A DNA stretch of 64,000 nucleotides, taken from NCBI RefSeq assembly GCF_053078305.1, contig NZ_CP166879.1. One strand, written 5' to 3'. Shown here piece after piece: positions 15,082-56,197 of this stretch (within the stretch, counting starts at the first letter, position 1; each line of letters begins with the position of its first letter). The position numbers and the translations under genes were made by a program. Under the pieces are notes generated by a model. It ran no database searches and was not told the DNA's origin. It saw nothing but the letters and a program-made list of their open reading frames with translations.

Positions 15082-15628
<547 letters not shown>

Positions 15629-15634
15629 CAGAAA

Positions 15635-16048
<414 letters not shown>

Positions 16049-16356
16049 TTATTCAGCCTCCTGTCTGGGTCAGCCGAATCCCGGGGAGGCAAGGAACGTG
16101 TTAAAGGTCGGCTGAAAAATGACGCGTTATAGTACTGACATACCCCGCTAAACTCAAGGCCAGCCGACAAATAAATCTCATCTTTCACCAAAGTGGACTA
16201 ACACGCTGATTTGAAGTTCATCACACTTCATCATGGTGTTTTTTTGAACAACTGCATCAGAAATGGTCACCATCAACTTCTTTATCATTGATTAAAATTA
16301 AATCAGAAGTTCATCACAGAGGAGAGCACACAAAGTCAGCCGTCGAGGAGGTATCT

Positions 16357-16632
16357 ATGTTCAGTCGTGTTTTAGCCCTTCTGGCTGTGCTTTTGCTAAG
16401 TGCAAATACATGGGCAGCCATTGAAATTAATAACCACCAGGCCAGAAATATGGACGATGTGCAAAGCTTAGGCGTGATTTATATCAATCATAATTTCGCC
16501 ACTGAAAGCGAAGCACGTCAGGCATTAAATGAAGAAACAGATGCGCAAGGCGCAACGTACTACCACGTAATTCTGATGCGGGAACCGGGGAGTAACGGCA
16601 ATATGCACGCCAGCGCGGATATTTATCGCTAG
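16357..16632 (+). CDS. yjfY: DUF1471 (YdgH/BhsA/McbA-like) periplasmic protein YjfY
   Basis: ORF 16288-16632; start set at MFSRVLALL with signal peptide (91 aa). Confidence 0.8.
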   Translation: MFSRVLALLAVLLLSANTWAAIEINNHQARNMDDVQSLGVIYINHNFATESEARQALNEETDAQGATYYHVILMREPGSNGNMHASADIYR

Positions 16633-16670
16633 CACCAGGTATAACCAACGAAACATTGCCATAGTTTGCT

Positions 16671-16698
16671 TTGCCCCCTTCGCAGGGGGCTTTTTTTG
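16671..16698 (+). terminator. Rho-independent terminator after yjfY
   Basis: GCCCCCT-TCGC-AGGGGGC hairpin followed by TTTTTTT. Confidence 0.8.
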
Positions 16699-16760
16699 AA
16701 AAACGGCTGCGGAATTAGACCAGTTATCTCCCGAGGAAGGAAATTTCCGCAGCGCGTGTT

Positions 16761-17447
16761 CTACTTCTGCCCGTAATAAGCGTTAGGACCGTGTTTACGC
16801 ATGAAGTGTTTATTCATCAGGAAGCTGTCGATGTGATTCAGTTGTGGGTTAATGCCGCGCGCAATCCACGCCATTTTCGCCACTTCTTCCATCACCACCG
16901 CGTTATGCACCGCATCGTGGGCATCTTTCCCCCAGGCGAACGGTCCGTGCTGATACACCACAATTCCCGGCGTATGCAGCGGCTCGGCGTTGCCCAGCGT
17001 TTCGATAATCACTTTGCCGGTGTTCAGTTCATACTCGCCCTGCACCTCTTCTTCGCTTAACCCGCGCGTACACGGAATGTCGCCAAAGAAGTAGTCAGCG
17101 TGCGTGGTGCCTAACGCCGGGATCGCCAGCCCCGCCTGCGCCCATGCGGTGGCATGAGTGGAGTGGGTATGGACAATGCCGCCAAGCGACGGGTAACGAC
17201 GGTAGAGTTCGAGATGCGTCGCAGTGTCGGAAGATGGGCGATACTCCCCTTCCACCACCTTGCCGCTCATATCAACCACCACCATATCGGCCGCTTTCAT
17301 GGTTTCGTAGGCAACGCCGCTGGGCTTGATCACCACCAGCCCGCGTTCGCGGTCGATAGCGCTGACGTTGCCCCAGGTAAAGGTCACCAGCCCGTAGCGC
17401 GGCAGCTCCATGTTGGCTTCAAATACCTGCTGTTTTAGCTTTTGCAT
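16761..17447 (-). CDS. ulaF: L-ribulose-5-phosphate 4-epimerase UlaF
   Basis: ORF 16761-17495; start set at MQKLKQQVF (228 aa); class II aldolase/epimerase fold; start overlaps ulaE stop. Confidence 0.9.
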
Positions 17448-18259
17448 TATGCCGCCTCCACCATGCCCGCTTTCGCCATGCGCGCTTTCACCCAATCACG
17501 CGCTTTCGCCACTTCTGCCGCCGGGTCTTCCGCCGTTTCGCTCCACATCTCAATCAGGTACGGCCCGCAATAGCCACTCTGTTTGAGCGTTTCGAAACAA
17601 CGTTCGAAATCCACTACACCTTCGCCAAACGGCACGTTTTTGAAGACGCCAGGTTTGGTGTCTTTCACATGTACCGCGACGATATGCCCGATTCCGGCCT
17701 GCAACTCCATCTGCACATCGTTGTCCCACGCCGACAGGTTGCCGATATCCGGGTAGAGCTGGAACCACGGATTGTTGAGATAGTGCGCGTAGCCCAGCGC
17801 CTTGCTGATGGAGTTCATCAACGGATAATCCATGATCTCCATCGCCAGCGTCACCTGCGCGCGGCTCGCCATCTCAACGCTCTCTTTCAGGCCGTCACGG
17901 AAACGACGACGCGTTTCGTTATTGGCTTCCTGATAATAAACGTCATAGCCCGCCAGCTGGATCACGCGAATACCAACGTCCTGGGCGAACTGGATAGCTT
18001 TACGCATAATCTCCAGCCCCTGCGCCCGCACCGCGTCATCTTCGCTACCCAGTGGGAAACGACGATGAGCAGAAAGGCACATGGACGGCACGCGCACGCC
18101 GGTTTCAACAATCGCATTGACCAGCGCCAGACGCTGCTCGCGGCTCCAGTCGAGGCGCGACAGGCGCTCGTCCGTTTCATCTACCGACATCTCGACAAAA
18201 TCGAAGCCCAACGTTTTTGCCAGTTGCAGGCGTTCCAGCCAGCACTCCCCAGCGGGGAG
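17447..18259 (-). pseudogene. ulaE: L-ribulose-5-phosphate 3-epimerase UlaE, 5'-truncated (first ~14 codons and start missing)
   Basis: Frame matches UlaE from ...[24 protein letters not shown] onward; upstream the frame hits a stop and island sequence begins. Confidence 0.85.
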
Positions 18260-18436
18260 GATTTATTAAGCCCTGTTTATTTCCACTGATTTCAACAGAA
18301 CTCTCTCCACCCCCTTTAACTCACTTTAAAATAAGGTATTATCATAAATTCTTTTACTCTGGACGTAAACCATCCTCCATGATCATCAATATAATTTTGG
18401 GGGCTACTCTGGGGGCTACTTTTCGGAGTTAACATC

Positions 18437-19618
18437 ATGCCACTTACTGTTCGGCAAATTGAGTCGGCCAAACCTGCTGACAAGGATTACAAACTTTCTG
18501 ATGGTCAAGGACTTTACCTTCTTATCAAGAAATCTGGCGCTCGTTACTGGAATCTGAAGTATCGATTTGCGGGTAAAGAAAAGAAATTGGTGATTGGTGT
18601 CTATCCAGGTATATCACTGGCTCTGGCGCGTCAGAAACGGGATGAAGCACGTAAACTCCTCGCTGAAGGAAAAGATCCTTCATATGAAAAACAGGCAAGT
18701 AAACATGCACTAAGAGAAAGTATTGCATGCACATTTTGTACTCTTGCAGAAGAGTTGTTCACACATATGGCTTGTCGTTGGACTGCGGGTTATTTAGCGG
18801 ACCAGCGTGCAAGATTCGAGAATCATATTAATCCCATGCTAGGGAAACGTCCTGTGGCTGATATTCGCCCCTTGGAAATATTGAATGCACTGAGGGTTAT
18901 AGAAAAGAATGGCAAACTTGAAGCGTTACGTAAGACTCGTCAGCTCTGTTCTCAAATATTTGATTACGCCATTGCGACGGGGCGCGCCACTATTAACCCA
19001 GCATCGACTCTCAACAGTGTTGTTCTTCATCCAGAAAAACAGCAGAGACGGATGCTATCTGAAGAACAGTTAGGCGCTTTCATGTACCAAATGAAAGTTT
19101 CAGGCAATTTTATGTCTCTGGTAACGCAAATACTGGTTCTAACTGCTGTTAGAACGGGAGAATTACGCCTTGCTACTTGGGATGAAATTGATTTTACCAA
19201 TGCCTTATGGGTAATCCCAAAAGAGAGAATGAAAATGCGAAGGCCGCATGTTGTTCCACTTTCTCATCAGACTCAAATGTTATTGAAAGAGATAAAAATA
19301 ATCACAGCTCCCCGTAACTCCGAGCTGGTTATTCCTGGTGTATACAGAGATAATCAACCTCGTGGTCGCGGTTGCATCAACGAGTTTCTTCAACAAGTTG
19401 GCTGGCATACATTCACTACAGCTCATGGTTTTCGGCATACTTTCAGTACCATTCTCCATGACCATGATTTCAGCTCTGCCTGGATTGAACTCCAGCTTGC
19501 CCATGTTGATAAAAACATCATGCGCGGCACCTACAACCACGCACAGTATCTCGATGGTCGTCGTGAAATGATGCAATGGTACGCTGACTACATTGATTCA
19601 CTTTCTGAGCAGGCCTGA
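18437..19618 (+). CDS. int: P4-type (phage) tyrosine integrase
   Basis: 393-aa ORF; N-terminal DUF4102-like MPLTVRQIESAKP...KDYKLSDGQGLYL and C-terminal catalytic region (HGFRHT...Y). Confidence 0.9.
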   Translation: MPLTVRQIESAKPADKDYKLSDGQGLYLLIKKSGARYWNLKYRFAGKEKKLVIGVYPGISLALARQKRDEARKLLAEGKDPSYEKQASKHALRESIACTFCTLAEELFTHMACRWTAGYLADQRARFENHINPMLGKRPVADIRPLEILNALRVIEKNGKLEALRKTRQLCSQIFDYAIATGRATINPASTLNSVVLHPEKQQRRMLSEEQLGAFMYQMKVSGNFMSLVTQILVLTAVRTGELRLATWDEIDFTNALWVIPKERMKMRRPHVVPLSHQTQMLLKEIKIITAPRNSELVIPGVYRDNQPRGRGCINEFLQQVGWHTFTTAHGFRHTFSTILHDHDFSSAWIELQLAHVDKNIMRGTYNHAQYLDGRREMMQWYADYIDSLSEQA

Positions 19619-19653
19619 TGAATGAAAGTTCAGTGATGCAGAAATAATGAATA

Positions 19654-19688
19654 ACCATCCGGCTTTGGAGGCCGGATGGTTTTATTTA
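19654..19688 (+). terminator. Rho-independent terminator after int
   Basis: ACCATCCGGC-TTTGGAG-GCCGGATGGT hairpin followed by T-run. Confidence 0.75.
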
Positions 19689-19900: not shown

Positions 19901-20530
19901 ATGATTCGGGTTGTGCTGGTGGATGACCATGTGGTGGTGCGCTCTGGTTTCGCACAGTTACTCTCTCTGGAAGACGATCTGGAGGTCATTGGTCAGTACA
20001 GTAGTGCCGCACAGGCATGGTCGGCATTAATCTGTGATGACGTCAATGTTGCCGTCATTGATATTGCTATGCCGGACGAAAACGGCCTCAGTTTGGTTAA
20101 GCGCCTGCGTGCACAAAAACCGCAATTCCGCGCCATTATTCTTAGCATTTATGACACGCCAACCTTTGTACAAAGCGCTCTGGATGCTGGTGCCAGTGGC
20201 TATTTGACCAAACGCTGTGGGCCGGAAGAGTTAGTGCAGGCGGTGCGCTCTGTCGGTATGGGAGGGCATTATCTCTGCGCCGATGCAATTCGGGCTTTAC
20301 GCGGCGGCGGGCAACCCGCCCAGGCACTGGAAATTCTCACCCCACGAGAACGTGAAGTGTTTGATTTATTAGTCAAAGGCGACAGTGTAAAAGAGATTGC
20401 CTTTAAGCTCGAACTCAGCCATAAAACGGTACATGTACATCGCGCCAACGTGCTGGGAAAACTGAACTGTCATAGCACCATTGAGCTGGTGCATTTTGCA
20501 CTCAACCACCATCTGCTGGCGGGGCATTAA
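19901..20530 (+). CDS. UhpA-like NarL/LuxR-family response regulator (paralog, not core uhpA)
   Basis: 209-aa ORF; receiver domain (VVLVDDH...D) plus LuxR HTH; ~50% similar to UhpA by eye. Confidence 0.85.
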   Translation: MIRVVLVDDHVVVRSGFAQLLSLEDDLEVIGQYSSAAQAWSALICDDVNVAVIDIAMPDENGLSLVKRLRAQKPQFRAIILSIYDTPTFVQSALDAGASGYLTKRCGPEELVQAVRSVGMGGHYLCADAIRALRGGGQPAQALEILTPREREVFDLLVKGDSVKEIAFKLELSHKTVHVHRANVLGKLNCHSTIELVHFALNHHLLAGH

Positions 20531-22071
20531 TGTCGCGTAACCTTCGTCATTGGGTGATTTCGCTGTTTATTGTGCTGGCCTGGGGAAGCGGCTGGCTGAT
20601 GTTGTGGACGCTCAGCTTTTATCTGACCAATAACGGTCAACAGGCAGTGTTATTTCTGCCGCACGGAGTTTACCTCGCTTTTCTTATTTTGCACTCTCGC
20701 CGTTACTGGCCTGCGTTGGTGCTCCCCCCTTTGCTGATGATGTTCTGGCTGCACAGCGAGCAACTGTTGAACGGCTATCTCATGCTGGCAACGCCGGTTA
20801 TTAGCCTGCTTCCTGCCATCATTGCACAAAACGTCTGGCACCGTTTTCCACTTTACTGGCAGCGTCTGACGTTGCTGTTAGCCTCAGTAACAGCAGCTTC
20901 ATTGCTGAATACAGCCATGCTAACCCCTTTTATGTCAGGCCCAATAATGCTGCCCGGTCTGACCTCATTTACCGGCGGCGTATTGTTGACGCCGTTTGTC
21001 TATCTTATCTTTGAGTTTCTGCGCCAGCAGCATCGCTATCAGCTTCTGAGACTCGATACGCATAATCCCCCCTTGCGAACCTCTTTAATCATCTGGTGTA
21101 GCCTATTTTTTATTATTGGTATCGGCACCCAGATGGTGTTGTCGCCTGAAATCGAACGCCTACTGCTGATCGTGGTATTTCTACCCAATGTAGTCATGGC
21201 CTGGAAATTTGGCTGGCAAGGGGGCGTACTCTCGGGGCTTTTGGGCAGCATGATGATCACTATTGCCCGCCAGATTGGTGTGGGCTTTAGTAACCTGGTG
21301 GAACTGGAGATTTTTCTCGCAACCCAGGCATTGCTGGGAATTGGCCTGGGCATTGCCATTAGTCGGCAGCAACATCTGGCGCTAAACCTGCATCATTACC
21401 GTCAGCGACTGGAGGCAGAACTGGCAGCACGGCGGGCATTGGCTGAAAAGCTGATCCATACCGAGGAAGACACGCGTAAAAGCCTGGCTCGCGAGCTGCA
21501 CGACGAAATCGGTCAGAACATTACCGCCATTCAGATCCAGTCGCAACTGGTGACGCGGGCACGCGATCCGGCGCAAGTTCATTCCGCAGCCAGCCAAATC
21601 AACGAACTCGCCCGCCGCATTCATCTCTCCACCCGCCAGTTGCTGCGCCAGTTGCGGCCCCCCGCGCTTGATGAACTGACATTCCGCGAAGCATTACTTC
21701 ATCTGATTAATGAATTTGCCTTTAGTGAACGCGGCATTCATTGCCAGTTTACCTATCAACTAACCACCACGCCAGAAAACGAAACGGTTCGCTTTACACT
21801 GTATCGGTTATTGCAGGAGTTACTCAATAACGTCTGTAAACACGCTGAAGCCAGCGAAGTGACGATTATTCTGCGCCAGCAGGGAGAGATATTGCACCTG
21901 GAGGTCAGCGACAACGGTATAGGAATCGCCAGCGGGAAAATGACCGGATTTGGCATTCAGGGGATGCGTGAACGCGTCAGTGCCCTGGGCGGCGACTTAA
22001 CGCTCGAAAAACATAACGGTACGCGGGTAATTGTTAACCTGCCCACATTTTTGCAACAAATCGCCGGATAA
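20530..22071 (+). CDS. UhpB-like membrane sensor histidine kinase
   Basis: 513-aa ORF; N-terminal multi-TM domain, H-box (LARELHDEIGQ) and HATPase region; start overlaps upstream stop (TAATG). Confidence 0.85.
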   Translation: MSRNLRHWVISLFIVLAWGSGWLMLWTLSFYLTNNGQQAVLFLPHGVYLAFLILHSRRYWPALVLPPLLMMFWLHSEQLLNGYLMLATPVISLLPAIIAQNVWHRFPLYWQRLTLLLASVTAASLLNTAMLTPFMSGPIMLPGLTSFTGGVLLTPFVYLIFEFLRQQHRYQLLRLDTHNPPLRTSLIIWCSLFFIIGIGTQMVLSPEIERLLLIVVFLPNVVMAWKFGWQGGVLSGLLGSMMITIARQIGVGFSNLVELEIFLATQALLGIGLGIAISRQQHLALNLHHYRQRLEAELAARRALAEKLIHTEEDTRKSLARELHDEIGQNITAIQIQSQLVTRARDPAQVHSAASQINELARRIHLSTRQLLRQLRPPALDELTFREALLHLINEFAFSERGIHCQFTYQLTTTPENETVRFTLYRLLQELLNNVCKHAEASEVTIILRQQGEILHLEVSDNGIGIASGKMTGFGIQGMRERVSALGGDLTLEKHNGTRVIVNLPTFLQQIAG

Positions 22072-22143
22072 CCAGGAAAAAGTCTTAGTCATCCCGGATT
22101 TTCTCTCATCCTCTTTCACTTTCATTTTCATATAGTCAGCAAC

Positions 22144-23460
22144 ATGGAGACGACCATGCACGCGCGTTCAGCGAGAGAGATTAATCAATGCTACCGGACA
22201 TTACGTCCACGATTGCTGATGTGCATGATTATTGGCTACGCCGCATTTTATCTGACGCGAAAAAGCGTGAATTACGTCCTTCCGGCGCTGCAAACCGACC
22301 TCGGACTGGATAAAGGCGACATTGGCCTGCTGGGTTCACTGTTTTATCTCAGCTACGGATTGTCGAAATTTACCGCCGGACTGTGGCATGACAGCCACGG
22401 ACAACGCGGTTTTATGGGTATCGGCTTGTTCGCCACTGGGCTATTGAACGTGGTGTTTGCCTTTGGCGAATCACTTACGCTTCTGCTTGTGGTCTGGACA
22501 CTGAACGGATTTTTTCAAGGCTGGGGGTGGCCACCGTGTGCCCGCTTACTGACCCATTGGTATTCCCGTAATGAACGTGGTTTCTGGTGGGGCTGCTGGA
22601 ATATGTCGATCAACATTGGCGGAGCGATTATTCCGCTGATTAGCGCCTTTGCCGCCCACTGGTGGGGCTGGCAGGCCGCGATGCTGACACCGGGGATAAT
22701 CAGCATGGCATTAGGGATCTGGTTAACGCTACAACTCAAAAGCACGCCCCAGGAAGAGGGATTACCGACAGTTGGTCACTGGCGTCACGATCCGCTGGAG
22801 TTACGTCAGGAACAACAAAGTCCGCCGATGGGGCTGTGGCAAATGTTGCGCACCACCATGCTGCAAAATCCGCTGATCTGGCTACTGGGTGTCTCTTATG
22901 TACTTGTTTATGTGATCCGGATTGCGCTAAACGACTGGGGCAATATCTGGCTGACGGAAAGCCACGGCGTCAACCTGCTCAGCGCCAACGCCACGGTAAT
23001 GCTGTTTGAAGTAGGCGGCTTACTCGGCGCGTTATTTGCCGGATGGGGTTCGGATTTGCTGTTTAGCGGGCAGCGAGCCCCCATGATTTTGCTGTTTACC
23101 CTTGGGTTGATGGTTTCGGTCGCTGCACTCTGGTTGGCACCGGTTCATCACTATGCCCTTCTGGCTGTGTGCTTTTTTACTGTGGGCTTTTTTGTCTTTG
23201 GCCCGCAAATGCTGATTGGACTTGCGGCAGTGGAATGTGGACACAAAGCTGCGGCGGGTTCAATCACCGGATTTCTCGGCCTGTTCGCCTATCTCGGTGC
23301 GGCGCTGGCAGGCTGGCCGTTGTCGCTGGTTATCGAACGCTACGGCTGGTCGGGAATGTTCAGTTTACTCTCGGTCGCCGCAGTACTTATGGGTTTACTG
23401 CTGATGCCGTTACTGATGGCGGGCATCACCACCACTCACGCTCGAAGGATAAAACAATGA
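22144..23460 (+). CDS. UhpC-like MFS sugar-phosphate sensor/transporter
   Basis: 438-aa ORF clearly homologous to UhpC/UhpT MFS proteins (FFQGWGWPPCARLLTHWYSRNERG). Confidence 0.85.
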   Translation: METTMHARSAREINQCYRTLRPRLLMCMIIGYAAFYLTRKSVNYVLPALQTDLGLDKGDIGLLGSLFYLSYGLSKFTAGLWHDSHGQRGFMGIGLFATGLLNVVFAFGESLTLLLVVWTLNGFFQGWGWPPCARLLTHWYSRNERGFWWGCWNMSINIGGAIIPLISAFAAHWWGWQAAMLTPGIISMALGIWLTLQLKSTPQEEGLPTVGHWRHDPLELRQEQQSPPMGLWQMLRTTMLQNPLIWLLGVSYVLVYVIRIALNDWGNIWLTESHGVNLLSANATVMLFEVGGLLGALFAGWGSDLLFSGQRAPMILLFTLGLMVSVAALWLAPVHHYALLAVCFFTVGFFVFGPQMLIGLAAVECGHKAAAGSITGFLGLFAYLGAALAGWPLSLVIERYGWSGMFSLLSVAAVLMGLLLMPLLMAGITTTHARRIKQ

Positions 23461-24488
23461 AAATGCCCCTTACCTCTACTCTGATTGCTTCTGCCGTTGC
23501 GCTGGCAACCTTAACGGGTGCCGCGCAGGCAAAAGGCCGGCTGGTGGTCTATTGCAGCGCCACTAATGAAATGTGTGAGACCGAAACCAAAGAGTTTGGC
23601 GAGAAATATGATGTGAAAACCTCGTTTATCCGCAACGGCTCCGGTAGCACCCTGGCAAAAGTCGATGCTGAAAAGAAAAACCCACAGGCTGACGTCTGGT
23701 ACGGCGGCACTTTAGACCCGCAGTCGCAGGCCGGCGAGATGGGCCTGTTACAGGCATATAAATCGCCTAACCTTGAACAGATCATGGAAAAATTCCGCGA
23801 TCCGGCAAAAGTGAAAGGAAACCTTTCCTCCGCCGTTTATGTGGGGATCCTCGGGTTTGGCGTCAACACAGAGCGTCTGAAAGAGAAAAACCTGCCTGTG
23901 CCGAAGTGCTGGAAAGATCTCACCAAACCTGAATATAAAGGCGAAATTCAGATTGCCGATCCACAAAGTTCCGGTACCGCCTACACCGCGCTGGCTACCT
24001 TTGCGCAGCTGTGGGGGGAAGATCAGGCCTTTGATTATCTAAAACAACTTAACGCCAACGTCTCCCAGTACACCAAATCAGGCATTGCCCCGGCACGTAA
24101 CGCCGCCCGCGGCGAAACGGCGATTGGTATTGGTTTCCTGCATGACTACTCGCTGGAAAAAGAACAGGGCGCACCACTGGAGTTGATTTCCCCGTGTGAA
24201 GGTACGGGCTACGAAATAGGCGGCGTCAGCATTCTGAAAGGTGCGCGCAACCTCGACAACGCCAAACTGTTCGTGGACTGGGTATTATCAAAAGAAGCTC
24301 AGGAACTGGCGTGGAAGAAAGGGAAATCTTATCAGATCCTGACCAATACCACCGCCGAAACGTCGCCAAATTCGCTGAAGCTCGACGACCTGAAATTAAT
24401 CAACTACGACATGGATAACTACGGTTCAACTGATGTTCGTAAGGCATTAATTAATAAATGGGTCAGCGAAGTGAAGATGGGTAAATAA
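23457..24488 (+). CDS. afuA: AfuA/FbpA-type periplasmic substrate-binding protein
   Basis: ORF 23169-24488 over-extended; start at MKMPLTSTL (signal peptide) overlapping uhpC-like stop (ATGA); 343 aa. Confidence 0.88.
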   Translation: MKMPLTSTLIASAVALATLTGAAQAKGRLVVYCSATNEMCETETKEFGEKYDVKTSFIRNGSGSTLAKVDAEKKNPQADVWYGGTLDPQSQAGEMGLLQAYKSPNLEQIMEKFRDPAKVKGNLSSAVYVGILGFGVNTERLKEKNLPVPKCWKDLTKPEYKGEIQIADPQSSGTAYTALATFAQLWGEDQAFDYLKQLNANVSQYTKSGIAPARNAARGETAIGIGFLHDYSLEKEQGAPLELISPCEGTGYEIGGVSILKGARNLDNAKLFVDWVLSKEAQELAWKKGKSYQILTNTTAETSPNSLKLDDLKLINYDMDNYGSTDVRKALINKWVSEVKMGK

Positions 24489-24556
24489 ACCCGTATTGTG
24501 TGCACTTGCCGGGTGCAGCACAGACGCCTGCCCCGGCCAACCATACCGGAACTGCT

Positions 24557-26635
24557 ATGTCACAGACACTTGCACTCCATCCCGCGAAAAAGCGGGATGC
24601 GATTTTCCTTTGGGTTTTGCTGGGCTGGCTGGCATTTATCCTGTTGCCGAGCTGGAGCCTCGATTATGGTCTGCTGGAGTCCACGAGTGATGAGATCCTC
24701 GAGGCGTACAGCTGGTCGCATTTTAATATCAGCTGGCTGTGGTATTTACTCCCGAGTTTGCTGCTGGTTCGCCCGTTTAATGAGGCCAAACGCGAGCAGC
24801 GTAGCCGTCATTATTTTGATGCCGGCTGGGCATTGCTTTGTATAGCGTTTATGGTCATCAGTGCCACCATCGTTGGCCGCGGTCTAGGCTACGCCGCCAT
24901 CGTGCTGTTTATCGAATTAAGCGCGATAATGACGCTGGCCTTAACCCGCCTCGAATGGCTGGGTGGCGACCGCTTTGTGATCGGCTCGCTGATTGCGATT
25001 GTGGCGCTGATTGGCATTTTTATCGTCTGGCCGAGCATCGCCATTTTTATCCCGATGTTCGCCAACGACGCGGGAGAGTTCGCCCCACTGGCGTTTATGA
25101 ATGTGCTCTCGCAGGCCCATATCATTCAGGTGATCGTCAACTCTATCGTCTTATCGATAGCGGTGGGTATTGGCTGCACTTTCTTCGGTCTGGTGCTGGC
25201 GATATATACCACGCGCATCGCTAAACGCAGCGCCGTAATCGGCCGCATCTTTTCCATTCTGCCAATTGTCACGCCACCGTTTGTGGTCGGCTTAGGCGTT
25301 ACGCTCATGATGGGGCGCTCCGGCTACATAACGGAATTTATGGTGGAGTGGTTTGGGCTGACCAACACCAACTGGCTGTATGGTTTTACCGGGATCTGGC
25401 TGGCACAGGTCCTGGCATTTACGCCAATGGCTTTTATGATCCTCGATGGGGCCATTAAAACCATTCATCCCTCGCTGGAAGAAGCCTCCTACACCCTGCG
25501 CGCCAGCCGCTGGCAAACCTTTAGCGGTGTGTTTGTGCCGTTGTTAAAGCCCGCGCTTGCCAATGCCTTTTTAATCGTCGTGGTGCAGTCACTGGCTGAC
25601 TTCAGTAACCCGCTGGTGCTTGGCGGCAACTTCGACGTACTGGCGACGCAAATTTACTTCTACATTACCGGCTCGCAGCTGGATTATCAGGCCGCCAGCA
25701 CCCTTGGCGCTTTCCTGCTGCTGTTCTCGCTACTGGTGTTCTGCGTCCAGTATATGTGGATTGGTAAACGCTCTTACGTCACGGTTTCCGGAAAGTCCTA
25801 CCGCGGCGATGTCCAGCCACTACCGGTCACCCTGGTGTGTAGCGTGGTCGCCATACTTGCGATATGGATTGCCTTTAACGCCCTGCTCTATGGCAGCATT
25901 TTCTACGGCAGCTTCACCGTGAACTGGGGCGTGGACTACACCCTAACGCTGGATAACTTTATCAAGTTATTTGGTCAGGGGATGAGCGACGGCGCGTGGC
26001 CTTCACTGTTAGATACCTTGCTCTACGCCGGGATTGCCGCACCCATTACCGCTATTTTTGGCCTGCTCATCGCCTGGGTGGTGGTGCGCCAACAATTCAA
26101 AGGCAAAAAGACCATCGAGTTCACCACCATGTTGTGCTTTGCCGTACCGGGTACAGTGGCGGGTGTCTCGTATATTCTTGCCTTTAATAGCGCCCCAGTC
26201 TATCTCACCGGAACGGCAGCAATTGTGATTATCTCGATGGTGATGCGTAACGTTCCGGTGGGTATTCGCGCCGGGATTGCAGGTCTGGGGCAGATCGACA
26301 AATCGCTGGATGAAGCCTCACTTAGCCTGCGTGCAGGTTCCCTGCGAACCATTACGCACATTTTACTGCCGTTATTACGCCCAGCTATTCTCTCGGCCCT
26401 GATTTACAGCTTTGTGCGGGCTATCACGACGGTCAGCGCCATCGTCTTTCTCGTCACGCCGGACACCCGCGTGGCAACCGCCTACATCCTTAACCGCGTA
26501 GAAGACGGCGAATATGGCGTAGCCATCGCCTACGGTTCGATTCTGATCGTGGTGATGCTGGCGATTATTTTCCTCTTTGACTGGCTGATCGGTGAAGCAC
26601 GTATTTCCCGTTCTAAAGCCAAAAACCAGGCGTAA
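24557..26635 (+). CDS. afuB: AfuB ABC transporter permease (two fused permease domains)
   Basis: ORF 24500-26635; start at MSQTLALHP gives 692 aa; duplicated ABC permease domains. Confidence 0.88.
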
Positions 26636-26646
26636 TGGAGCGCACT

Positions 26647-27693
26647 ATGAGTCAGAAAAATTTTGTGGAACTGCGCAACGTCACTAAACGATTCGGCAGT
26701 AATATGGTTATCGACAATATCAATCTCACCATCCCACAAGGGCAAATGGTGACGCTGCTCGGTCCTTCCGGATGCGGCAAAACCACCATTCTGCGTCTGG
26801 TTGCCGGGCTGGAAAAACCGAGCGAAGGGCAAATTTTTATAGATGGCGAAGATGTCACGCATCGTTCCATTCAGCAACGCGATATCTGCATGGTGTTTCA
26901 GTCATACGCTCTGTTCCCACATATGTCGCTGGGCGAAAACGTTGGCTATGGGCTGAAAATGCTTGGCGTGTCGCGTAATGAAGTGAAGCAGCGGGTGAAA
27001 GATGCGCTGGCAATGGTGGATCTGGAAGGATTCGAAGACCGCTATGTCGATCAGATTTCCGGCGGTCAGCAACAGCGTGTGGCTCTGGCCCGTGCGTTGA
27101 TCCTCAAGCCAAAGGTGCTGCTGTTTGATGAGCCGTTAAGTAACCTCGATGCCAACCTGCGCCGCAGTATGCGCGATAAGATCCGCGAGCTGCAAAAGCA
27201 GTTTAATATCACGTCGCTCTACGTGACTCACGATCAAAGTGAAGCTTTCGCGGTGTCCGACACTGTACTGGTGATGAATAAAGGTCACATCATGCAGATC
27301 GGTTCACCGCAGGAGCTCTATCGTCAGCCCGCCTCCCGCTTTATGGCAAGTTTTATGGGCGACGCCAACCTGTTCCCGGCGAACTTTAGCGAAGAGTATG
27401 TCGATATCTACGGTTATCGCCTGCCGCGCGCGGCGTATTTCCCGGTGCAAGGTAGAGGCACCGTCGGCGTTCGCCCGGAAGCCATCACCTTAAGCAATCA
27501 CGGCGAAGAGAGTCAGCGTTGTGTTATTCGCCATGTCGCTTACATGGGGCCGCAGTACGAAGTGACCGTAGAATGGCATGGTCAGGAGATTTTATTGCAA
27601 GTCAACGCCACTCGTTTACAGCCCGATACTGGTGAGCACTATTACCTCGAAATCCATCCTTACGGGATGTTTGTTTTAGCGGATTCGGCATAA
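26647..27693 (+). CDS. afuC: AfuC ABC transporter ATP-binding protein
   Basis: ORF 26635-27693; start at MSQKNFVEL (348 aa); Walker [10 protein letters not shown], signature LSGGQQQR, Walker B LLFDEP. Confidence 0.9.
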
Positions 27694-32692: not shown

Positions 32693-34783
32693 ATGCGAAT
32701 AACCACTCTGGCTTCCGTAGTCATTCCCTGTCTCGGATTTTCAGCCAGCAGCATAGCTGCTGCAGAGGATGTGATGATTGTCTCGGCATCCGGCTATGAG
32801 AAAAAGCTGACTAACGCAGCCGCCAGTGTTTCTGTGATTAGCCAGGAGGAATTGCAGTCCAGCCAGTACCACGATCTGGCGGAGGCTCTGAGATCAGTAG
32901 AGGGTGTGGATGTTGAAAGTGGTACGGGTAAAACCGGTGGGCTGGAAATCAGCATCCGAGGAATGCCAGCCAGTTACACGCTGATACTGATTGATGGTGT
33001 TCGTCAGGGCGGAAGCAGTGACGTGACTCCCAACGGTTTTTCTGCCATGAATACCGGGTTCATGCCCCCTCTGGCCGCCATTGAGCGTATTGAGGTTATC
33101 AGGGGGCCGATGTCCACACTGTATGGCTCTGATGCGATGGGCGGTGTGGTGAATATCATTACCAGAAAGAATGCAGACAAATGGCTCTCTTCCGTCAATG
33201 CAGGGCTGAATCTGCAGGAAAGCAACAAATGGGGTAACAGCAGCCAGTTTAATTTCTGGAGCAGTGGTCCCCTTGTGGATGATTCTGTCAGCCTGCAGGT
33301 ACGCGGTAGCACACAACAGCGTCAGGGCTCATCGGTCACATCACTGAGCGATACAGCAGCCACGCGTATTCCTTATCCCACGGAGTCACAGAATTATAAT
33401 CTTGGTGCACGTCTTGACTGGAAGGTGTCGGAGCAGGATGTGCTCTGGTTTGATATGGATACCACCCGGCAGCGTTATGATAACCGGGATGGGCAACTGG
33501 GGAGTCTGACGGGGGGATATGACCGGACCCTGCGCTATGAGCGAAACAAAATTTCAGCTGGCTATGATCATACTTTCACCTTCGGAACATGGAAATCGTA
33601 TCTGAACTGGAACGAGACAGAAAATAAAGGTCGTGAGCTCGTACGCAGTGTACTGAAGCGCGACAAATGGGGGCTTGCCGGTCAGCCGCGGGAGCTTAAG
33701 GAATCGAACCTTATCCTGAATTCATTACTGCTTACCCCTCTGGGAGAATCTCATCTGGTTACGGTGGGGGGCGAGTTTCAGAGCTCGTCCATGAAAGACG
33801 GAGTTGTCCTTGCCAGCACAGGTGAAACTTTCCGGCAGAAAAGCTGGTCGGTATTTGCTGAGGATGAGTGGCATCTCACGGATGCACTTGCGCTGACTGC
33901 GGGCAGCCGCTATGAACATCATGAGCAATTCGGGGGACACTTCAGTCCGCGTGCATATCTGGTCTGGGATGTGGCAGATGCCTGGACGCTGAAAGGCGGT
34001 GTGACCACGGGATATAAGGCACCCAGAATGGGGCAGCTACATAAAGGGATTAGTGGTGTGTCCGGGCAGGGAAAAACAAATCTACTTGGTAACCCCGACC
34101 TGAAGCCGGAAGAGAGCGTCAGTTATGAGGCTGGGGTGTATTACGATAACCCCGCCGGTCTGAATGCCAATGTCACAGGTTTTATGACTGACTTCTCCAA
34201 CAAGATTGTCTCTTATTCCATAAATGATAACACCAATAGCTATGTAAACAGCGGAAAGGCCCGGTTGCACGGTGTGGAATTTGCCGGCACATTGCCGCTG
34301 TGGTCAGAGGATGTCACGCTGTCACTGAATTACACCTGGACCCGAAGTGAACAACGTGATGGTGATAACAAAGGTGCGCCGCTGAGTTATACCCCTGAAC
34401 ACATGGTGAATGCGAAACTGAACTGGCAGATCACCGAAGAGGTGGCATCATGGCTGGGTGCCCGTTATCGCGGGAAAACACCACGTTTCACCCAGAATTA
34501 TTCGTCACTGAGCGCTGTACAGAAGAAAGTGTATGATGAGAAAGGAGAATACCTGAAAGCCTGGACGGTGGTGGATGCAGGTCTGTCGTGGAAGATGACG
34601 GATGCCCTGACGCTGAATGCTGCGGTGAATAACCTGCTCAACAAGGATTACAGTGACGTGAGCCTGTTCAGTGCCGGTAAGAGTACGCTGTATGCCGGTG
34701 ATTACTTCCAGACGGGATCATCAACAACGGGATATGTGATACCTGAGCGAAATTACTGGATGTCGCTGAACTATCAGTTCTGA
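32693..34783 (+). CDS. iha: TonB-dependent outer-membrane receptor, Iha-like (IrgA homologue adhesin / siderophore receptor)
   Basis: 696-aa ORF; signal peptide, TonB box (DVMIVSAS), plug domain and C-terminal aromatic beta-barrel terminus (NYQF); length and sequence recalled as Iha. Confidence 0.7.
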   Translation: MRITTLASVVIPCLGFSASSIAAAEDVMIVSASGYEKKLTNAAASVSVISQEELQSSQYHDLAEALRSVEGVDVESGTGKTGGLEISIRGMPASYTLILIDGVRQGGSSDVTPNGFSAMNTGFMPPLAAIERIEVIRGPMSTLYGSDAMGGVVNIITRKNADKWLSSVNAGLNLQESNKWGNSSQFNFWSSGPLVDDSVSLQVRGSTQQRQGSSVTSLSDTAATRIPYPTESQNYNLGARLDWKVSEQDVLWFDMDTTRQRYDNRDGQLGSLTGGYDRTLRYERNKISAGYDHTFTFGTWKSYLNWNETENKGRELVRSVLKRDKWGLAGQPRELKESNLILNSLLLTPLGESHLVTVGGEFQSSSMKDGVVLASTGETFRQKSWSVFAEDEWHLTDALALTAGSRYEHHEQFGGHFSPRAYLVWDVADAWTLKGGVTTGYKAPRMGQLHKGISGVSGQGKTNLLGNPDLKPEESVSYEAGVYYDNPAGLNANVTGFMTDFSNKIVSYSINDNTNSYVNSGKARLHGVEFAGTLPLWSEDVTLSLNYTWTRSEQRDGDNKGAPLSYTPEHMVNAKLNWQITEEVASWLGARYRGKTPRFTQNYSSLSAVQKKVYDEKGEYLKAWTVVDAGLSWKMTDALTLNAAVNNLLNKDYSDVSLFSAGKSTLYAGDYFQTGSSTTGYVIPERNYWMSLNYQF

Positions 34784-37071: not shown

Positions 37072-38628
37072 ATGCACGATTACCTGCTTTTTTTACTGGG
37101 ACTTACCCCCCTTCTGGCGATGATCATTTTGATTCTGAAAGTCAAAATGCCCATACACTATTCTGTGCTTAGCACTCTCCTGCTCACGCTAATCCTTGGA
37201 GGGGTTTTCTGGCAGACGCCAGTTATGGATATGGGATCTGCTGTGGTATACGGCGCAATCAAAGGTTTGTGGCCGATTGTGATTGTCATCCTTGCTGCCA
37301 TTTACAGCTATAACCTGATGAATGCGACAAAAAGCATGGATATTCTGAGAAATGTTCTAGCCAGCGTGAGCGATGATAAACGTATCCAGGTTCTTCTTAT
37401 CTCATGGTGTTTTGGCGGATTTCTTGAGGCGGCCGCCGGATACGGTACAGCGGTAGCAATCCCCATAGGTATACTCATTGCACTGGGCTTTAACCCACTA
37501 AAAGCAGCGATTGCATCACTGGTTGCTAATACAGTCCCTACAGCGTTTGGGGCAGTCGGTATACCTGTCTCCGTGCTTGCTGAACAAGTTAATTTACCTG
37601 TAACCACACTCAGCGGGACGATTATTCTTCAGCTGGCACTGTTCAACATTCTGCTCCCCTTCGTTATCGTCACGATTATCGGTGGAGGTATGAAAGCTAT
37701 ACGAGGCGTAGGGTTAATTACCCTGATGTGCGGTATTAGCACATTGATACCTCAGTATCTGGTGGCTGTTAATCTTGGCGCAGAGCTCCCGGCTTTCGCA
37801 GGAAGTCTTGTCAGTCTGATCGTTATAGTCTTTATGGCAAAAAACCGTAAAGAAAAAACAGAACCTGAATTTCTTATTGAGAGTTCAGCAGATAGCGCCA
37901 GCGCACTTTCATACTCTCGTGGGGCGTTGTTACGTGCGTGCTCAATCTACATTCTGATCTTTCTGTTCATTCTGCTTTGCTCTCCACTGTTCCCGACGAT
38001 AAAAAGTGCAGTGTCTCAGATTGCCTCGTCACTCACCTTCTCTCTGAGTAACGGCAGCAATCTGTCGATGAAAATTGAATGGATCGCAACCCCCGGTGTT
38101 CTGATTATCATTGCCAGTGTTATTGGCGGCTTGATACAGAAAGCATCCCTGTCATGCCTGTTAAACGTATTTGTCAGCACGGTAAAACAACTTAAAAACT
38201 CCATTATTGCCATTTCTGCGATTGTTGCCATGGCAACGGTAATGGATGTCTGTGGGTTGATTGGCACTCTGGCACAGAGCCTTGTGGATCTGACTGGTGG
38301 GGCCTACCTCTTCATTGCTCCGGTTATCGGCGCTCTTGGTACATTTGTTACTGGTAGTGACACAAACTCCAACATTCTGTTTGGTAAATTGCAGACTACT
38401 GCGGCTGAAAAATTGCATGTGGACCCGCTCTGGCTGGCTGCCGCAAATACATCTGGCGCAACAGGCGGCAAAATGATTTCTCCTCAGAGTATTGCTATCG
38501 CTGTTTCAGCCACCCGTATGGATGGTCAGGGCAGCGTAATCATGTCAGGAACACTGAAGTACTGCTTTGCTTATATTGTTATTCTTGGACTGAAAGTAGG
38601 CCTTGTCTACCACCTGTTCATGGCCTGA
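37072..38628 (+). CDS. lctP: L-lactate permease family (LctP) transporter
   Basis: 518-aa polytopic membrane protein with LctP-family features. Confidence 0.8.
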   Translation: MHDYLLFLLGLTPLLAMIILILKVKMPIHYSVLSTLLLTLILGGVFWQTPVMDMGSAVVYGAIKGLWPIVIVILAAIYSYNLMNATKSMDILRNVLASVSDDKRIQVLLISWCFGGFLEAAAGYGTAVAIPIGILIALGFNPLKAAIASLVANTVPTAFGAVGIPVSVLAEQVNLPVTTLSGTIILQLALFNILLPFVIVTIIGGGMKAIRGVGLITLMCGISTLIPQYLVAVNLGAELPAFAGSLVSLIVIVFMAKNRKEKTEPEFLIESSADSASALSYSRGALLRACSIYILIFLFILLCSPLFPTIKSAVSQIASSLTFSLSNGSNLSMKIEWIATPGVLIIIASVIGGLIQKASLSCLLNVFVSTVKQLKNSIIAISAIVAMATVMDVCGLIGTLAQSLVDLTGGAYLFIAPVIGALGTFVTGSDTNSNILFGKLQTTAAEKLHVDPLWLAAANTSGATGGKMISPQSIAIAVSATRMDGQGSVIMSGTLKYCFAYIVILGLKVGLVYHLFMA

Positions 38629-38677
38629 GAAAAAACAACAAAAGGACGTGGAATATTAATCAACAGGAGAAATTTCT

Positions 38678-39397
38678 GTGAATGTTAACTTTTTCGTCAC
38701 CTGCATTGGTGATGCGTTTAAATCCCGGATGGCACAAAAGAGTGTGCTGTTACTGGAGCAATTGGGTTGCAATGTCCATTTCCCCGAAAAGCAGGGATGT
38801 TGTGGTCAGCCAGCGATAAATGGCGGTTATGTTCGTGATGCCATCCCGGGCATGAAAAATCTCATATCTTCGCTGGAAGAGAATGACTGGCCGGTAGTAT
38901 CTCCTGCCGGGTCATGCACTTACACGATAAAAAATTACGCTCGCTATCTCAGTGAAGAACCTGAGTGGGCGGCACGAGCTGAAAAAGTGGCTGAACGCCT
39001 GCATGATTTGACATCATTTATAGTAAATCATCTTGGCATCACAGATGTTGGGGCAAAACTCAATGGTCGCGCTGTGTACCATCCCTCCTGCAGCCTTTCC
39101 CGTAAGCTGGGTGTAACCAGAGAGCCGCTTTTGCTACTTGAGAATGTACAGGGGCTTGAGCTACTGCCGTTTCACGCTCAGGAAACGTGCTGCGGGTTTG
39201 GCGGCACATTCTCTGTAAAAATGGCGGAGATCTCTGGTGAAATGGTGAAAGAGAAAGTCGGGCATATTATGGATGTTAAACCTGATTTTCTTATCGGGGC
39301 TGACGCCAGTTGCCTGCTAAACATCGGCGGTCGGCTTAACCGTGAAGGGCATCCTGTAAAAGTGATGCATATTGCTGAAGTCCTGATGCACAGATGA
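38678..39397 (+). CDS. lutA: Lactate utilisation protein A (LutA/YkgE-like, cysteine-rich CCG-domain Fe-S oxidoreductase)
   Basis: 239-aa ORF, GTG start with AGGAGA RBS; two CCG-type cysteine motifs (CCGQPA, CCGFGG). Confidence 0.82.
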   Translation: MNVNFFVTCIGDAFKSRMAQKSVLLLEQLGCNVHFPEKQGCCGQPAINGGYVRDAIPGMKNLISSLEENDWPVVSPAGSCTYTIKNYARYLSEEPEWAARAEKVAERLHDLTSFIVNHLGITDVGAKLNGRAVYHPSCSLSRKLGVTREPLLLLENVQGLELLPFHAQETCCGFGGTFSVKMAEISGEMVKEKVGHIMDVKPDFLIGADASCLLNIGGRLNREGHPVKVMHIAEVLMHR

Positions 39398-39407
39398 GGT
39401 AAACAGA

Positions 39408-40823
39408 ATGTCTTTGAAAACAAGTGATATCAGGTTTAAAGAGCGTATCCGTATTCAGATTCAGGACCCGATCATGCGAAAAGCTGTGGCTAACGCACAG
39501 GAGCGCATAGGGACTAATCGACAGAAAATGGTTGATGAACTGGGACACTGGGAGGAATGGCGTTCACGAGCTGAACAGATTCGTCGGCATGTTCTGGAAA
39601 ATCTTGATGCTTATTTGTATCAATTGTCCGAAAAGGTTACTGCGAATGGCGGGCATGTATATTTTGCCCGTACCAGAGAGGATGCAACCAGTTACATACT
39701 GAAGGTGGCGAAAGAAAAAAACGCCAGGAAGGTTGTTAAATCCAAATCAATGGTGACTGAGGAAATTGGCATGAATGCCGTTCTTCAGAAAGCCGGGATA
39801 CCCGTGATTGAAACGGACCTTGGGGAATATATTCTTCAGCTAGCACATGAGCCACCATCGCATGTGGTTGTGCCGGCAATACATAAAGATCGCCATCAAA
39901 TCCGCAGAGTTTTACATGAACATCTGGGGTATGACGGGCCTGAAACTCCAGAAGCAATGACATTGTTCATCCGTGAGAAAATCAGACAAGATTTTCTGAG
40001 TGCTGAAGTTGGCGTAACGGGGTGTAACTTTGCCGTTGCAGAAACAGGGTCAGTCTGCCTTGTTACAAACGAAGGCAACGCACGGATGTGCACCACATTA
40101 CCTAAAACACATATTGCTGTTATGGGTATGGAGCGTATTGCTCCGACATTCCAGGAGGTGGATGTTCTGATTACCATGCTTGCAAGGAGTGCTGTCGGGG
40201 CGAGACTGACAGGTTATAACACCTGGCTTACAGGCCCCAGAGAAGAAGGACATGTTGATGGTCCGGAAGAGTTCCATCTCGTTATTGTTGACAATGGGCG
40301 TTCAGAGATTCTCGGCTCAGAATTCAGCGATGTATTGCGATGTATCCGCTGCGGTGCCTGCATTAATACCTGCCCGGCTTATCGTCAGATTGGTGGGCAT
40401 GGTTATGGTTCAATCTACCCGGGGCCAATCGGCGCGGTTATTTCCCCATTGCTTGGTGGATATGAAGACTTTAAGGATTTACCCTATGCCTGCTCATTGT
40501 GCACTGCCTGCAATGGGGTATGTCCTGTAAAAATACCTCTGGCAACGCTAATACAAAAACATCGCCAGGTTATGGCAGAGTCTGAAATCACACCATTAAC
40601 GGAACGCCGTATAACCAGAGCATTCAATTACATAAACAGCCATCCGGCGTTGTGGAAGGTAGGTATGGTTGCTGGGGCCAAAACAGCCCGTCTGTTCATC
40701 AGGAAAGGAAAAACGCCGATTAGTGTTGGGGCGATAAAAGAATGGACTGAAGCCAGAGACCTGCCATCACCTGATGGAGAAAGCTTCCGTAGTTGGTTCA
40801 AGCGACATAAGAAGGAGGGGTAA
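39408..40823 (+). CDS. lutB: Lactate utilisation protein B (LutB/YkgF-like, 4Fe-4S ferredoxin + LUD domain)
   Basis: 471-aa ORF with two CxxCxxCxxxCP ferredoxin motifs (CIRCGACINTCP, CSLCTACNGVCP). Confidence 0.85.
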   Translation: MSLKTSDIRFKERIRIQIQDPIMRKAVANAQERIGTNRQKMVDELGHWEEWRSRAEQIRRHVLENLDAYLYQLSEKVTANGGHVYFARTREDATSYILKVAKEKNARKVVKSKSMVTEEIGMNAVLQKAGIPVIETDLGEYILQLAHEPPSHVVVPAIHKDRHQIRRVLHEHLGYDGPETPEAMTLFIREKIRQDFLSAEVGVTGCNFAVAETGSVCLVTNEGNARMCTTLPKTHIAVMGMERIAPTFQEVDVLITMLARSAVGARLTGYNTWLTGPREEGHVDGPEEFHLVIVDNGRSEILGSEFSDVLRCIRCGACINTCPAYRQIGGHGYGSIYPGPIGAVISPLLGGYEDFKDLPYACSLCTACNGVCPVKIPLATLIQKHRQVMAESEITPLTERRITRAFNYINSHPALWKVGMVAGAKTARLFIRKGKTPISVGAIKEWTEARDLPSPDGESFRSWFKRHKKEG

Positions 40824-40826
40824 TTT

Positions 40827-41525
40827 ATGGAAAACAGAGAGGAATTTCTCGTTGCGATCGCCAGAAAGCTTGGCAGACCAGTAAGACATATTCCCGAAGC
40901 AATGCCGGAGCCTGTAAATACGCTGGCTACGACACGTTTAACAGAGTTGACATCAGACCAACGCTGTGAGGCGTTTATTAAATTTGCCTCGGAAGTGATG
41001 CTTGCCGAGTGTGTTCTGGTGTCGCCTGAGAACGCACCATCAACAGCCTTAGACATCTGTTGGAAGTTCGGTTCCGGGCCAGTCATTATCAGCAACGATC
41101 AACGACTGGTCGATACAGGGATTACGCCATTGCTACAAAAAGAAATGGACGCTGCTCTGTGGGATCCGGAGAAGGGCGATGAAAATATCCATCTTGCTGA
41201 AAAGGCAAAAACTGGTGTCGTTTTCGCTGAGTATGGGCTGACAGAATCAGGAGGCATTGTCTTATTCTCCGCACCAGAACGTGGGCGCTCAGTAAGCCTT
41301 TTGCCTGAAGCATCATTATTTGTTTTACGTAAAAGCACCATTCTCCCCAGAGTGGCGCAGCTTGCGCAAAAACTTCATGATATGGCTCAGGAAGGACAAC
41401 GGATGCCGTCCTGTATAAATCTGATTGGAGGCCCAAGTTCTACTGCAGATATAGAACTGATCAAAGTTGTTGGCGTACATGGTCCTGTACATGCAACCTA
41501 TTTGATCATTGATGATTGCGATTAA
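40827..41525 (+). CDS. lutC: Lactate utilisation protein C (LutC/YkgG-like, LUD domain)
   Basis: 232-aa ORF immediately after lutB; operon context. Confidence 0.78.
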   Translation: MENREEFLVAIARKLGRPVRHIPEAMPEPVNTLATTRLTELTSDQRCEAFIKFASEVMLAECVLVSPENAPSTALDICWKFGSGPVIISNDQRLVDTGITPLLQKEMDAALWDPEKGDENIHLAEKAKTGVVFAEYGLTESGGIVLFSAPERGRSVSLLPEASLFVLRKSTILPRVAQLAQKLHDMAQEGQRMPSCINLIGGPSSTADIELIKVVGVHGPVHATYLIIDDCD

Positions 41526-55921: not shown

Positions 55922-56197
55922 CTATTTTTTATCTTCTTTTCTTTCTTGTAACTTTGCTTTTATCCAAATACCAATCCCTGCTAACATACCAGCCCCTCCC
56001 CCCACCTTTAAAGAATAAATAATATCTGCCCTCCAATCAAAAAATAAAACTTGAGTTTTAGAAAAAACTATCAGTCTACCAAGAATAGTACCTAACATTG
56101 CCATAAAAAAGATGCAAGCTATGCAGCGCATTATTAGTATGATAAGAATGTAAAAGTTGACACTCTTATTTATTTTTAATGGATTTATCAGCTTCAT
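55922..56197 (-). CDS. cdiI: Putative CdiI immunity protein (small polytopic membrane protein)
   Basis: 91-aa hydrophobic ORF immediately downstream of and overlapping the cdiA 3' end; start may be an internal Met. Confidence 0.6.
   Translation of the reverse strand: MKLINPLKINKSVNFYILIILIMRCIACIFFMAMLGTILGRLIVFSKTQVLFFDWRADIIYSLKVGGGAGMLAGIGIWIKAKLQERKEDKK

Follow-up and report, generated by a model that had tools for sequence, protein, structure and literature searches.

A P4-integrase-type genomic island at a 14-bp palindromic core within ulaE of Escherichia coli

Satellite phage P4 integrates at the 3′ end of the tRNA-Leu gene leuX. In its annotated attP, a first pair of arm repeats lies just upstream of int and the core ~150 bp upstream; a second pair follows 55-75 bp past the core. 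E. coli prophages are also found in protein-coding genes: Stx phages in wrbA or yehV, and e14 and phage 21 in icd. The icd-targeting phages bring a replacement gene end, keeping icd functional.

Among pathogenicity islands (PAIs), Biggel et al. (2020; Nat Commun, PMC7686366) listed “ula: ulaE - ulaD” as one of six integration sites of papGII islands, termed ula and gln “two novel PAI integration sites”, and reported that the islands at these two sites carry insertion-site-specific integrases. The ula islands they described include PAI 6-Pyelo-ula in CC144 (O16:H6) and PAI 67-Pyelo-ula. The kind of element, the integration site, and the mechanism are already established, the ula site having been published in 2020.

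The island that we analyzed is like the ula-site PAIs, by site and by description, in having its own integrase and in lying between ulaD and the body of ulaE. The ula-site PAIs are absent from sister strains, their published size (36-73 kb) overlaps the 38-131 kb measured here, and our carriers include a genome of serotype O16:H6, the serotype given for PAI 6-Pyelo-ula in CC144. It is unlike them in that the site falls not “between ulaE and ulaD” but inside ulaE (codons 15-19, with a 14-bp core), and in that its visible 45.7 kb are without pap, with uhp/afu-like, iha, lut, Mokosh, and CdiA-like genes instead. We are highly confident that a mosaic island of the P4-integrase type entered ulaE by site-specific recombination at a 14-bp imperfect palindrome (codons 15-19, CTCCCCGCYGGGGA). 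The element is typical of P4-integrase islands; its non-tRNA site is atypical but has been described before.

The ulaE remnant and the adjoining integrase

The window, i.e., the whole 64-kb stretch of DNA analyzed, is E. coli-type chromosome in reversed orientation relative to K-12, its flank running cysQ ... cycA, fklB, ytfB, yjfZ, rplI-rpsR-priB-rpsF, yjfY, ulaF, and ulaE. The features around the junction are as follows.

16761..17447, minus strand: ulaF (L-ribulose-5-phosphate 4-epimerase), translated without internal stops and collinear with K-12 ulaF
17447..18259, minus strand: ulaE remnant, codons 15-284, from the K-12 match, the reading of the frame, and the NCBIfam profile
18246..18259, no strand assigned: att core TCCCCAGCGGGGAG (CTCCCCGCTGGGGA in gene orientation), ulaE codons 15-19, from repeat comparison
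18260..18436, no strand assigned: integrase-proximal att arm, with two tandem arm-type repeats
18398-18406 and 18410-18418, minus strand: the two arm-type repeats TAGCCCCCA, their only occurrences in the 64-kb window
18437..19618, plus strand: P4-type tyrosine integrase, 393 aa, from Pfam domains and homology to P4 Int

Homology to K-12 ulaE extends from the ulaE stop at 17447 to window position 18259, where it ends at K-12 ulaE nucleotide 43; the 5′ loss is 42 nt, or 14 codons (MLSKQIPLGIYEKA). In the frame 5′ of LPAGECW we read TAA TAA ATC, i.e., two in-frame TAA stops. This bears out an earlier note, made from the letters of this DNA, which had followed an intact ulaE frame back to about codon 15 (LPAGECW) and then met a stop. 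The frames of the remnant and of ulaF show no further decay, and ulaF is also annotated in SCU-387 and GPEC1176.

The int ORF starts 177 bp past the breakpoint, on the strand opposite to ulaE, close to the ~180 bp estimated in the note, whose range for the junction (17447-18436) accurately covers the ulaE remnant and the integrase-proximal att arm. The protein has the arm-binding, central, and catalytic domains of a three-domain tyrosine recombinase (Arm-DNA-bind_3, PF13356, 3.9e-26; Phage_int_M, PF22022, 3.8e-25; Phage_integrase, PF00589, 8.9e-19), like P4 Int, with which it shares 35% identity over its full length (~390 aligned residues, E = 1e-74), and the HGFR, LAH/LSH, and Y motifs of the RHRY region align between the two. 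The label “P4-type” given to it earlier was well chosen, resting now on domains and homology. It is ~41% identical to the IntS, Sf6, and HK620 integrases; its NF007246 score is below the model cut-off, and it is therefore not a close member of that family.

The att core and its arms

The core has the plus-strand consensus TCCCC(A/G)GCGGGGAG (14 bp). It is an imperfect palindrome, extended by the next base to a 6-bp/3-nt/6-bp structure, which a terminator scan reports as a stem-loop. Because the core is common to the gene and the island, the exact boundary is undefined within these 14 bp. The window core has a private A at 18251, where four other sequences compared have G; the variant is synonymous (GCT for GCC) and uninformative as to the crossover point.

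The earlier note had proposed comparison with an island-free relative as the way to define attB and the direct repeats. K-12 and the window are collinear as far as the core, and K-12, with a single copy of the core, represents the empty site; in SCU-387 the core is repeated directly and perfectly over its 14 bp, one copy at each island end, and the window shows the integrase-side copy. Written in ulaE orientation, the K-12 empty site reads GAAAAAGCG-CTCCCCGCCGGGGA-GTGCTGGCTGG, the ulaD side of SCU-387 reads GAAAAAGCG-CTCCCCGCCGGGGA-TGAACTTAATC, and the integrase side in the window reads CTTAATAAATC-CTCCCCGCTGGGGA-GTGCTGGCTGG.

The TAGCCCCCA repeats lie 19-39 bp upstream of the int start (two copies in the 64-kb window vs. 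0.36 expected). A second tandem pair is present 61-81 bp inside the far island end of SCU-387, the sole copies in that 50-kb locus, and with the two loci taken together arm-type repeats flank the core on both sides. The geometry is that of the P4 attP, with the core ~150-180 bp upstream of int and the distal arm repeats ~55-80 bp beyond the core. The repeats would be the sequences bound by the arm domain of the integrase, and the interval 18260-18436 probably also contains the int promoter. The islands of SCU-387 and GPEC1176 each have, toward their far end, a gene for an AlpA-like helix-turn-helix protein (68 aa), a candidate excisionase; no homologue was found in the visible part of the island in the window.

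From this layout we propose that the integrase of the island would bind the tandem TAGCCCCCA pairs flanking the core in a circular attP, with the predicted junction ...GATTAAGTTCA-TCCCCRGCGGGGAG-GATTTATTAAGCCC..., and would then exchange strands within the core that attP and attB have in common. The expected product, as seen in relatives, would have ulaG, ulaABCD, and ulaE codons 1-19 on one side, an island of 38-131 kb in the middle, and the integrase, the core, ulaE codons 15-284, and ulaF on the other side. The left junction, downstream of ulaD, is predicted to read ...GAAAAAGCG-CTCCCCGCYGGGGA-TGAACTTAATC... in ulaE orientation. We infer the window’s own far island end and second core copy from these relatives. 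With a copy of the core retained at each end, precise excision would leave ulaE whole again.

Members of the family typically integrate at the 3′ end of a tRNA or tmRNA gene, although this does not strictly define them; here the target is ulaE codons 15-19. No tRNA or tmRNA was detected by ARAGORN in the entire 64-kb window or at four further loci, and a permissive Rfam scan of 15500-20500 returned the RpsF leader and two sub-threshold chance matches only, with no family at the junction. The same searches exclude a hidden tRNA or sRNA target at the junction, in line with the earlier reading that no tRNA or tmRNA is visible there. Relative to P4, the ulaE island differs in its target (a protein-coding gene, not a tRNA), in the length of its core (14 bp vs. 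20 bp annotated for P4), and in its size (a mosaic of 38-131 kb vs. an 11.6-kb satellite phage). It is like the wrbA, yehV, and icd prophages in integrating site-specifically inside an ORF, but unlike the icd phages it supplies stop codons only, leaving ulaE 5′-truncated. A promoter scan of the junction gave one promoter-like site toward the ulaE remnant and one toward int, a frequency at chance level, and the promoter and terminator scans provide no evidence either way on expression of the ulaE remnant and ulaF.

Between gcvP and ygfF, E. coli TUM9803 carries a related integrase gene (79% identical in DNA), and no tRNA was found at this intergenic locus. K-12 homology there ends exactly after CCCCTTTGGGGAG, at a CCCC-TTT-GGGGAG motif; the island edge starts with GATCTATT, vs. 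GATTTATT for the ulaE island, with GATYTATT common to both, and the arm repeats are conserved. TUM9803 differs from the ulaE island in its intergenic target and in its spacer (TTT vs. RGC on the window plus strand), the comparison being of one end of the TUM9803 element. The similarity suggests that the integrases of the two loci may recognize short CCCC-N3-GGGGAG dyads.

Island cargo, distribution, and divergence across the core

Beyond the integrase, the visible part of the island in the window contains the following features.

19901..27693, plus strand: UhpA-like response regulator, MASE1 sensor kinase, UhpC, and an AfuABC-like ABC transporter (binding protein, permease, ATPase), from ORFs and the GPEC1176 annotation
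32693..34783, plus strand: iha (siderophore receptor/adhesin), NCBIfam NF010012 at 1614 bits, with iha also in GPEC1176
37072..41525, plus strand: L-lactate permease and lutABC-type lactate utilization genes, from ORFs and the collinear GPEC1176 annotation
42753..49258, minus strand: Mokosh-type anti-phage pair MkoA (1652 aa) and MkoB (515 aa), PADLOC scores of 1305 and 207 bits
49726..55320, no strand assigned: insertion-sequence remnants (IS2/IS3 and two IS66-family transposases), from profile matches and comparison with GPEC1176
56166..64000, minus strand: giant ORF of the filamentous-haemagglutinin type (CdiA-like), with TIGR01731 repeats, running off the window

From the junction onward, this island and the GPEC1176 island remain collinear as far as 53583, a position in the insertion-sequence cluster, and the GPEC1176 stretch matching the 19901..27693 cargo is 100% identical. 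Because the CdiA-like ORF runs off the window and no sequence of ulaD or of the ulaE 5′ end is present in it, the island must exceed 45.7 kb, with its far end outside the window. No usher-sized or pap-like ORF that would indicate a pap operon was found in 18260-64000, and the island continues past the window. Comparison with K-12 likewise showed the rest of K-12 aidB-ulaD and the ulaE 5′ end to be absent from the 64 kb.

We surveyed 5,426 complete E. coli genomes. The ulaF-ulaE′-integrase junction (ulaE′ denoting the remnant) is present in 63 of them and the ulaD-ulaE 5′-island junction also in 63, and all 30 genomes listed for the integrase-side junction are also among the ulaD-side matches. 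The paired junction coordinates of these 30 genomes give island lengths of 38-131 kb. The integrase at ≥95% identity is found in 64 genomes and adjoins ulaE in all among the matches listed; its ORF is intact in every genome examined. Carriers come from pig, chicken, and bovine hosts and from human uropathogenic strains, and include O111:H8, O15:H18 ST69, and O16:H6; one carrier has an inversion between the two junctions. In SCU-387 the island is 68 kb long, and beyond the far core the ulaE 5′ end, ulaD, ulaCBA, and ulaG follow, ulaG and ulaABCD being intact on that side; in a 67-codon ORF after ulaD, the ulaE 5′ end continues into island sequence. The closest complete genomes reach 99.3% identity at the junction, and 100% for island segments only (GPEC1176). 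In species-representative genomes neither the exact integrase-side junction nor the arm-repeat pair was found, a weak negative with one genome per species.

The earlier note had considered two origins for the junction, insertion of the island into ulaE or a rearrangement. The first is upheld by the K-12 empty site, the SCU-387 repeat, and the 63 genomes for each junction; the second falls away. A non-specific rearrangement (an IS-mediated deletion or inversion) or an assembly artefact could in principle have joined an island from elsewhere, e.g., from a tRNA gene, to a truncated ulaE, and the lack of a tRNA at the junction and the many insertion-sequence elements inside the island would fit such an origin. 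However, the junction itself is without an insertion sequence, the 14-bp direct repeat stands at both ends in SCU-387 and matches the K-12 empty site exactly, P4-like arm repeats adjoin the core, and the same junction recurs in 63 independent complete assemblies. We consider a rearrangement effectively refuted by the two junctions in 63 complete genomes each together with the core repeat comparison, and its probability negligible.

A more serious alternative is a single ancient insertion, now fixed and immobile, that has been passed on by vertical inheritance or by homologous recombination in the flanks, as for the High-Pathogenicity Island, and not by repeated integrase-mediated insertion. 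Every copy is at one site, insertion sequences and pseudogenes show the island to be in heavy decay, one genome has the inversion between the junctions, and flank recombination is a documented route by which E. coli pathogenicity islands spread (PMC2606025). The pattern of divergence, however, argues against it. The window and GPEC1176 differ by 33 mismatches over 1,484 bp in ulaF-ulaE, the final two being at 18119 and 18251 (the latter in the core); the 1.4 kb past the core contain a single mismatch and 7.8 kb of cargo contain none, which places the step in divergence at the core. The integrase is 99.7-99.9% identical between strains differing by 1.1-2.2% in the adjacent ulaEF, and the step lies within ~10 bp of the core, not further into the flank. 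The intact integrase ORF in all genomes examined, and the diverse hosts (pig, chicken, bovine, human uropathogenic, O111:H8, ST69, O16:H6), also speak against a single insertion. If separate lineages had acquired the island through the integrase, a step at the core would be expected; later recombination in the ulaEF flank could also yield it. On balance we regard a single immobile insertion as unlikely, though worth keeping in view, and favor site-specific integration by the island’s own integrase.

Ascorbate metabolism and the meaning of the island

The earlier note had predicted loss of ula-dependent ascorbate use unless an intact copy lay elsewhere, and named two findings that would overturn its account: a second intact ulaE, or a UlaE that naturally begins at the break. 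As to the first, each junction genome has a single ulaE/ulaF locus (GPEC1176 shows a second place of match). As to the second, full-length UlaE is the norm: the solved structures (3CQH-3CQK) are of the full-length protein, and LGIYEKAL, among the lost residues, is identical in the paralogue SgbU, which is 59% identical to UlaE. We judged the role of the 14 lost residues from SgbU conservation and profile coverage; an AlphaFold2 single-sequence model of K-12 UlaE had a mean pLDDT of 43, too poor to show it.

RefSeq (PGAP), on the other hand, annotates the remnant as a non-pseudogene of 271 codons with an ATC start at 18262 (WP_044189500.1). If this were a genuine, functional, shorter UlaE, ascorbate use would be unaffected, and the undecayed frame and a score of 493 bits, far above the NCBIfam cut-off of 272, are compatible with that. 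However, the earliest canonical in-frame start (ATG/GTG/TTG) is a TTG at 18211, codon 31, with two stop codons directly upstream of the truncation point, and the NCBIfam matches begin at position 12 of 279 (TIGR00542) and 17 of 286 (NF009688), the family profiles extending 11-16 positions 5′ of that point. The remnant thus has neither the whole-model coverage nor the canonical start of an intact UlaE. The conservation of LGIYEKAL in SgbU and the distance of the operon promoter, which is at least 38 kb off, beyond the island, also count against it. A functional shorter UlaE is, in our judgment, very improbable.

In relatives, the ulaA promoter is 38-131 kb distant, across the island, and the ulaE remnant and ulaF would be separated from it. 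Judging from sequence, UlaE would be inactive, and ulaE′-ulaF would not be co-expressed with ulaABCD. With UlaE inactive and co-expression lost, the Ula route from L-xylulose-5-phosphate to D-xylulose-5-phosphate would be broken; the Ula epimerase steps are most likely lost, and carriers may plausibly have lost the ability to ferment ascorbate. According to PMC4324149 (citing Campos et al. 2007, 2008), E. coli has two systems for ascorbate, ula and yiaK-S. Of the 5,426 genomes, 4,838 have the yiaK-S paralogues sgbU and sgbE, whose products could partially compensate for the lost Ula steps. Our literature search found nothing on sgaU with an integrase, or on ulaE with sgbU and ascorbate; an O104:H4 paper that mentions the ula operon proved irrelevant, its IS1 deletion being in a different ascorbate/lyxose locus.

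A broader reading is that a P4-type lineage, represented by this integrase and its relative at gcvP-ygfF, left tRNA genes for short CCCC-N3-GGGGAG palindromes, and that the ulaE insertion acts as a reversible metabolic switch, with carriers trading ascorbate fermentation for cargo; since the frame is maintained across the 14-bp core, ulaE would be rebuilt on precise excision. We regard this reading as speculative and improbable. If it were true, carriers would give up anaerobic ascorbate fermentation and gain sugar-phosphate uptake, lactate use, iron uptake, and phage defense, and could revert.

What is new relative to Biggel et al. (2020) is the intragenic location of the site and the definition of a 14-bp palindromic core with a P4-like arm layout. 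Given the RefSeq call of an intact ulaE, metabolic reconstructions of carriers will wrongly score the Ula pathway as complete. In ~1% of complete E. coli genomes, one and the same integrase and site are shared by islands with very different cargo.

Annotation of the truncated ulaE and its chromosomal flank

The 5′-truncated ulaE is carried in RefSeq as a coding sequence, in the window and in three comparison loci (L001, L005 and L006), and the flanking chromosome holds several further features:

17447-18262, minus strand, 5′-truncated ulaE (PGAP)
L001 20748-21563, L005 2188-3003 and L006 1944-2759, the same truncated CDS (PGAP)
16028-16112, minus strand, RpsF leader (RF02893, 110 bits), 5′ of rpsF
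11456-12664, minus strand, TnpB of the IS200/IS605-type, RNA-guided endonuclease family (385 bits)
691-1915, low-GC segment of 1.2 kb in the ytfJ-cysQ interval
766-1704, minus strand, 312-aa ORF in that segment

PGAP labels the truncated gene as an intact UlaE of 271 aa (e.g., WP_044189500.1); the first codon of this CDS is ATC, and two TAA stops directly precede it. The 271-aa call is probably an annotation artefact that masks a disrupted gene. The RpsF leader is an expected housekeeping element. The window TnpB (402 aa) is apparently intact, and at the equivalent position in E. coli SCU-387, which carries an island at the same ulaE site, this gene is frameshifted and flanked by fragments of a TetR-family gene. 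The low-GC segment (GC 0.35) is missing from SCU-387, and its 312-aa ORF returned no match in NCBIfam or PADLOC.

A related integrase at gcvP-ygfF

L004 3960-5357, related integrase site in E. coli TUM9803 (NZ_CP135671.1)
L008 1380-1690, K-12 counterpart

The TUM9803 integrase gene shares 79% DNA identity with that of the window and lies in the gcvP-ygfF intergenic region. At the one element end examined, the integration point is a CCCCTTTGGGGAG motif within GC-rich repeat-like sequence, and the arm repeats and island edge are common to this element and the ulaE island.

Island cargo and a rearranged carrier

19901-27693, plus strand, UhpA-like regulator, MASE1 sensor kinase, UhpC and AfuABC-like ABC transporter
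42753-49258, minus strand, Mokosh-type anti-phage defence pair MkoA and MkoB (PADLOC)
56166-63986 and past the window end, minus strand, giant filamentous-haemagglutinin-repeat ORF (CdiA/two-partner-secretion type)

These regulatory and transport genes directly follow the integrase, are 100% identical to those of E. coli GPEC1176, which also carries an island in ulaE, and have a layout that we take to resemble the AfuABC sugar-phosphate uptake module of Citrobacter rodentium. Within the island, MkoA (1652 aa, 1305 bits) combines a kinase-like N-terminus with an SF1 helicase, and MkoB has 515 aa (207 bits). The giant ORF starts past two IS66 copies, beyond the end of collinearity with the GPEC1176 island, and encodes >2,606 aa, a lower bound since the window ends within it.

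In E. coli JNEC-KY203 (NZ_AP045179.1, about 4363271 to 4475500), both ulaE-island junctions, on the integrase side and the ulaD side, lie on one strand with 112 kb between them, an arrangement that implies an inversion with one endpoint inside the island.
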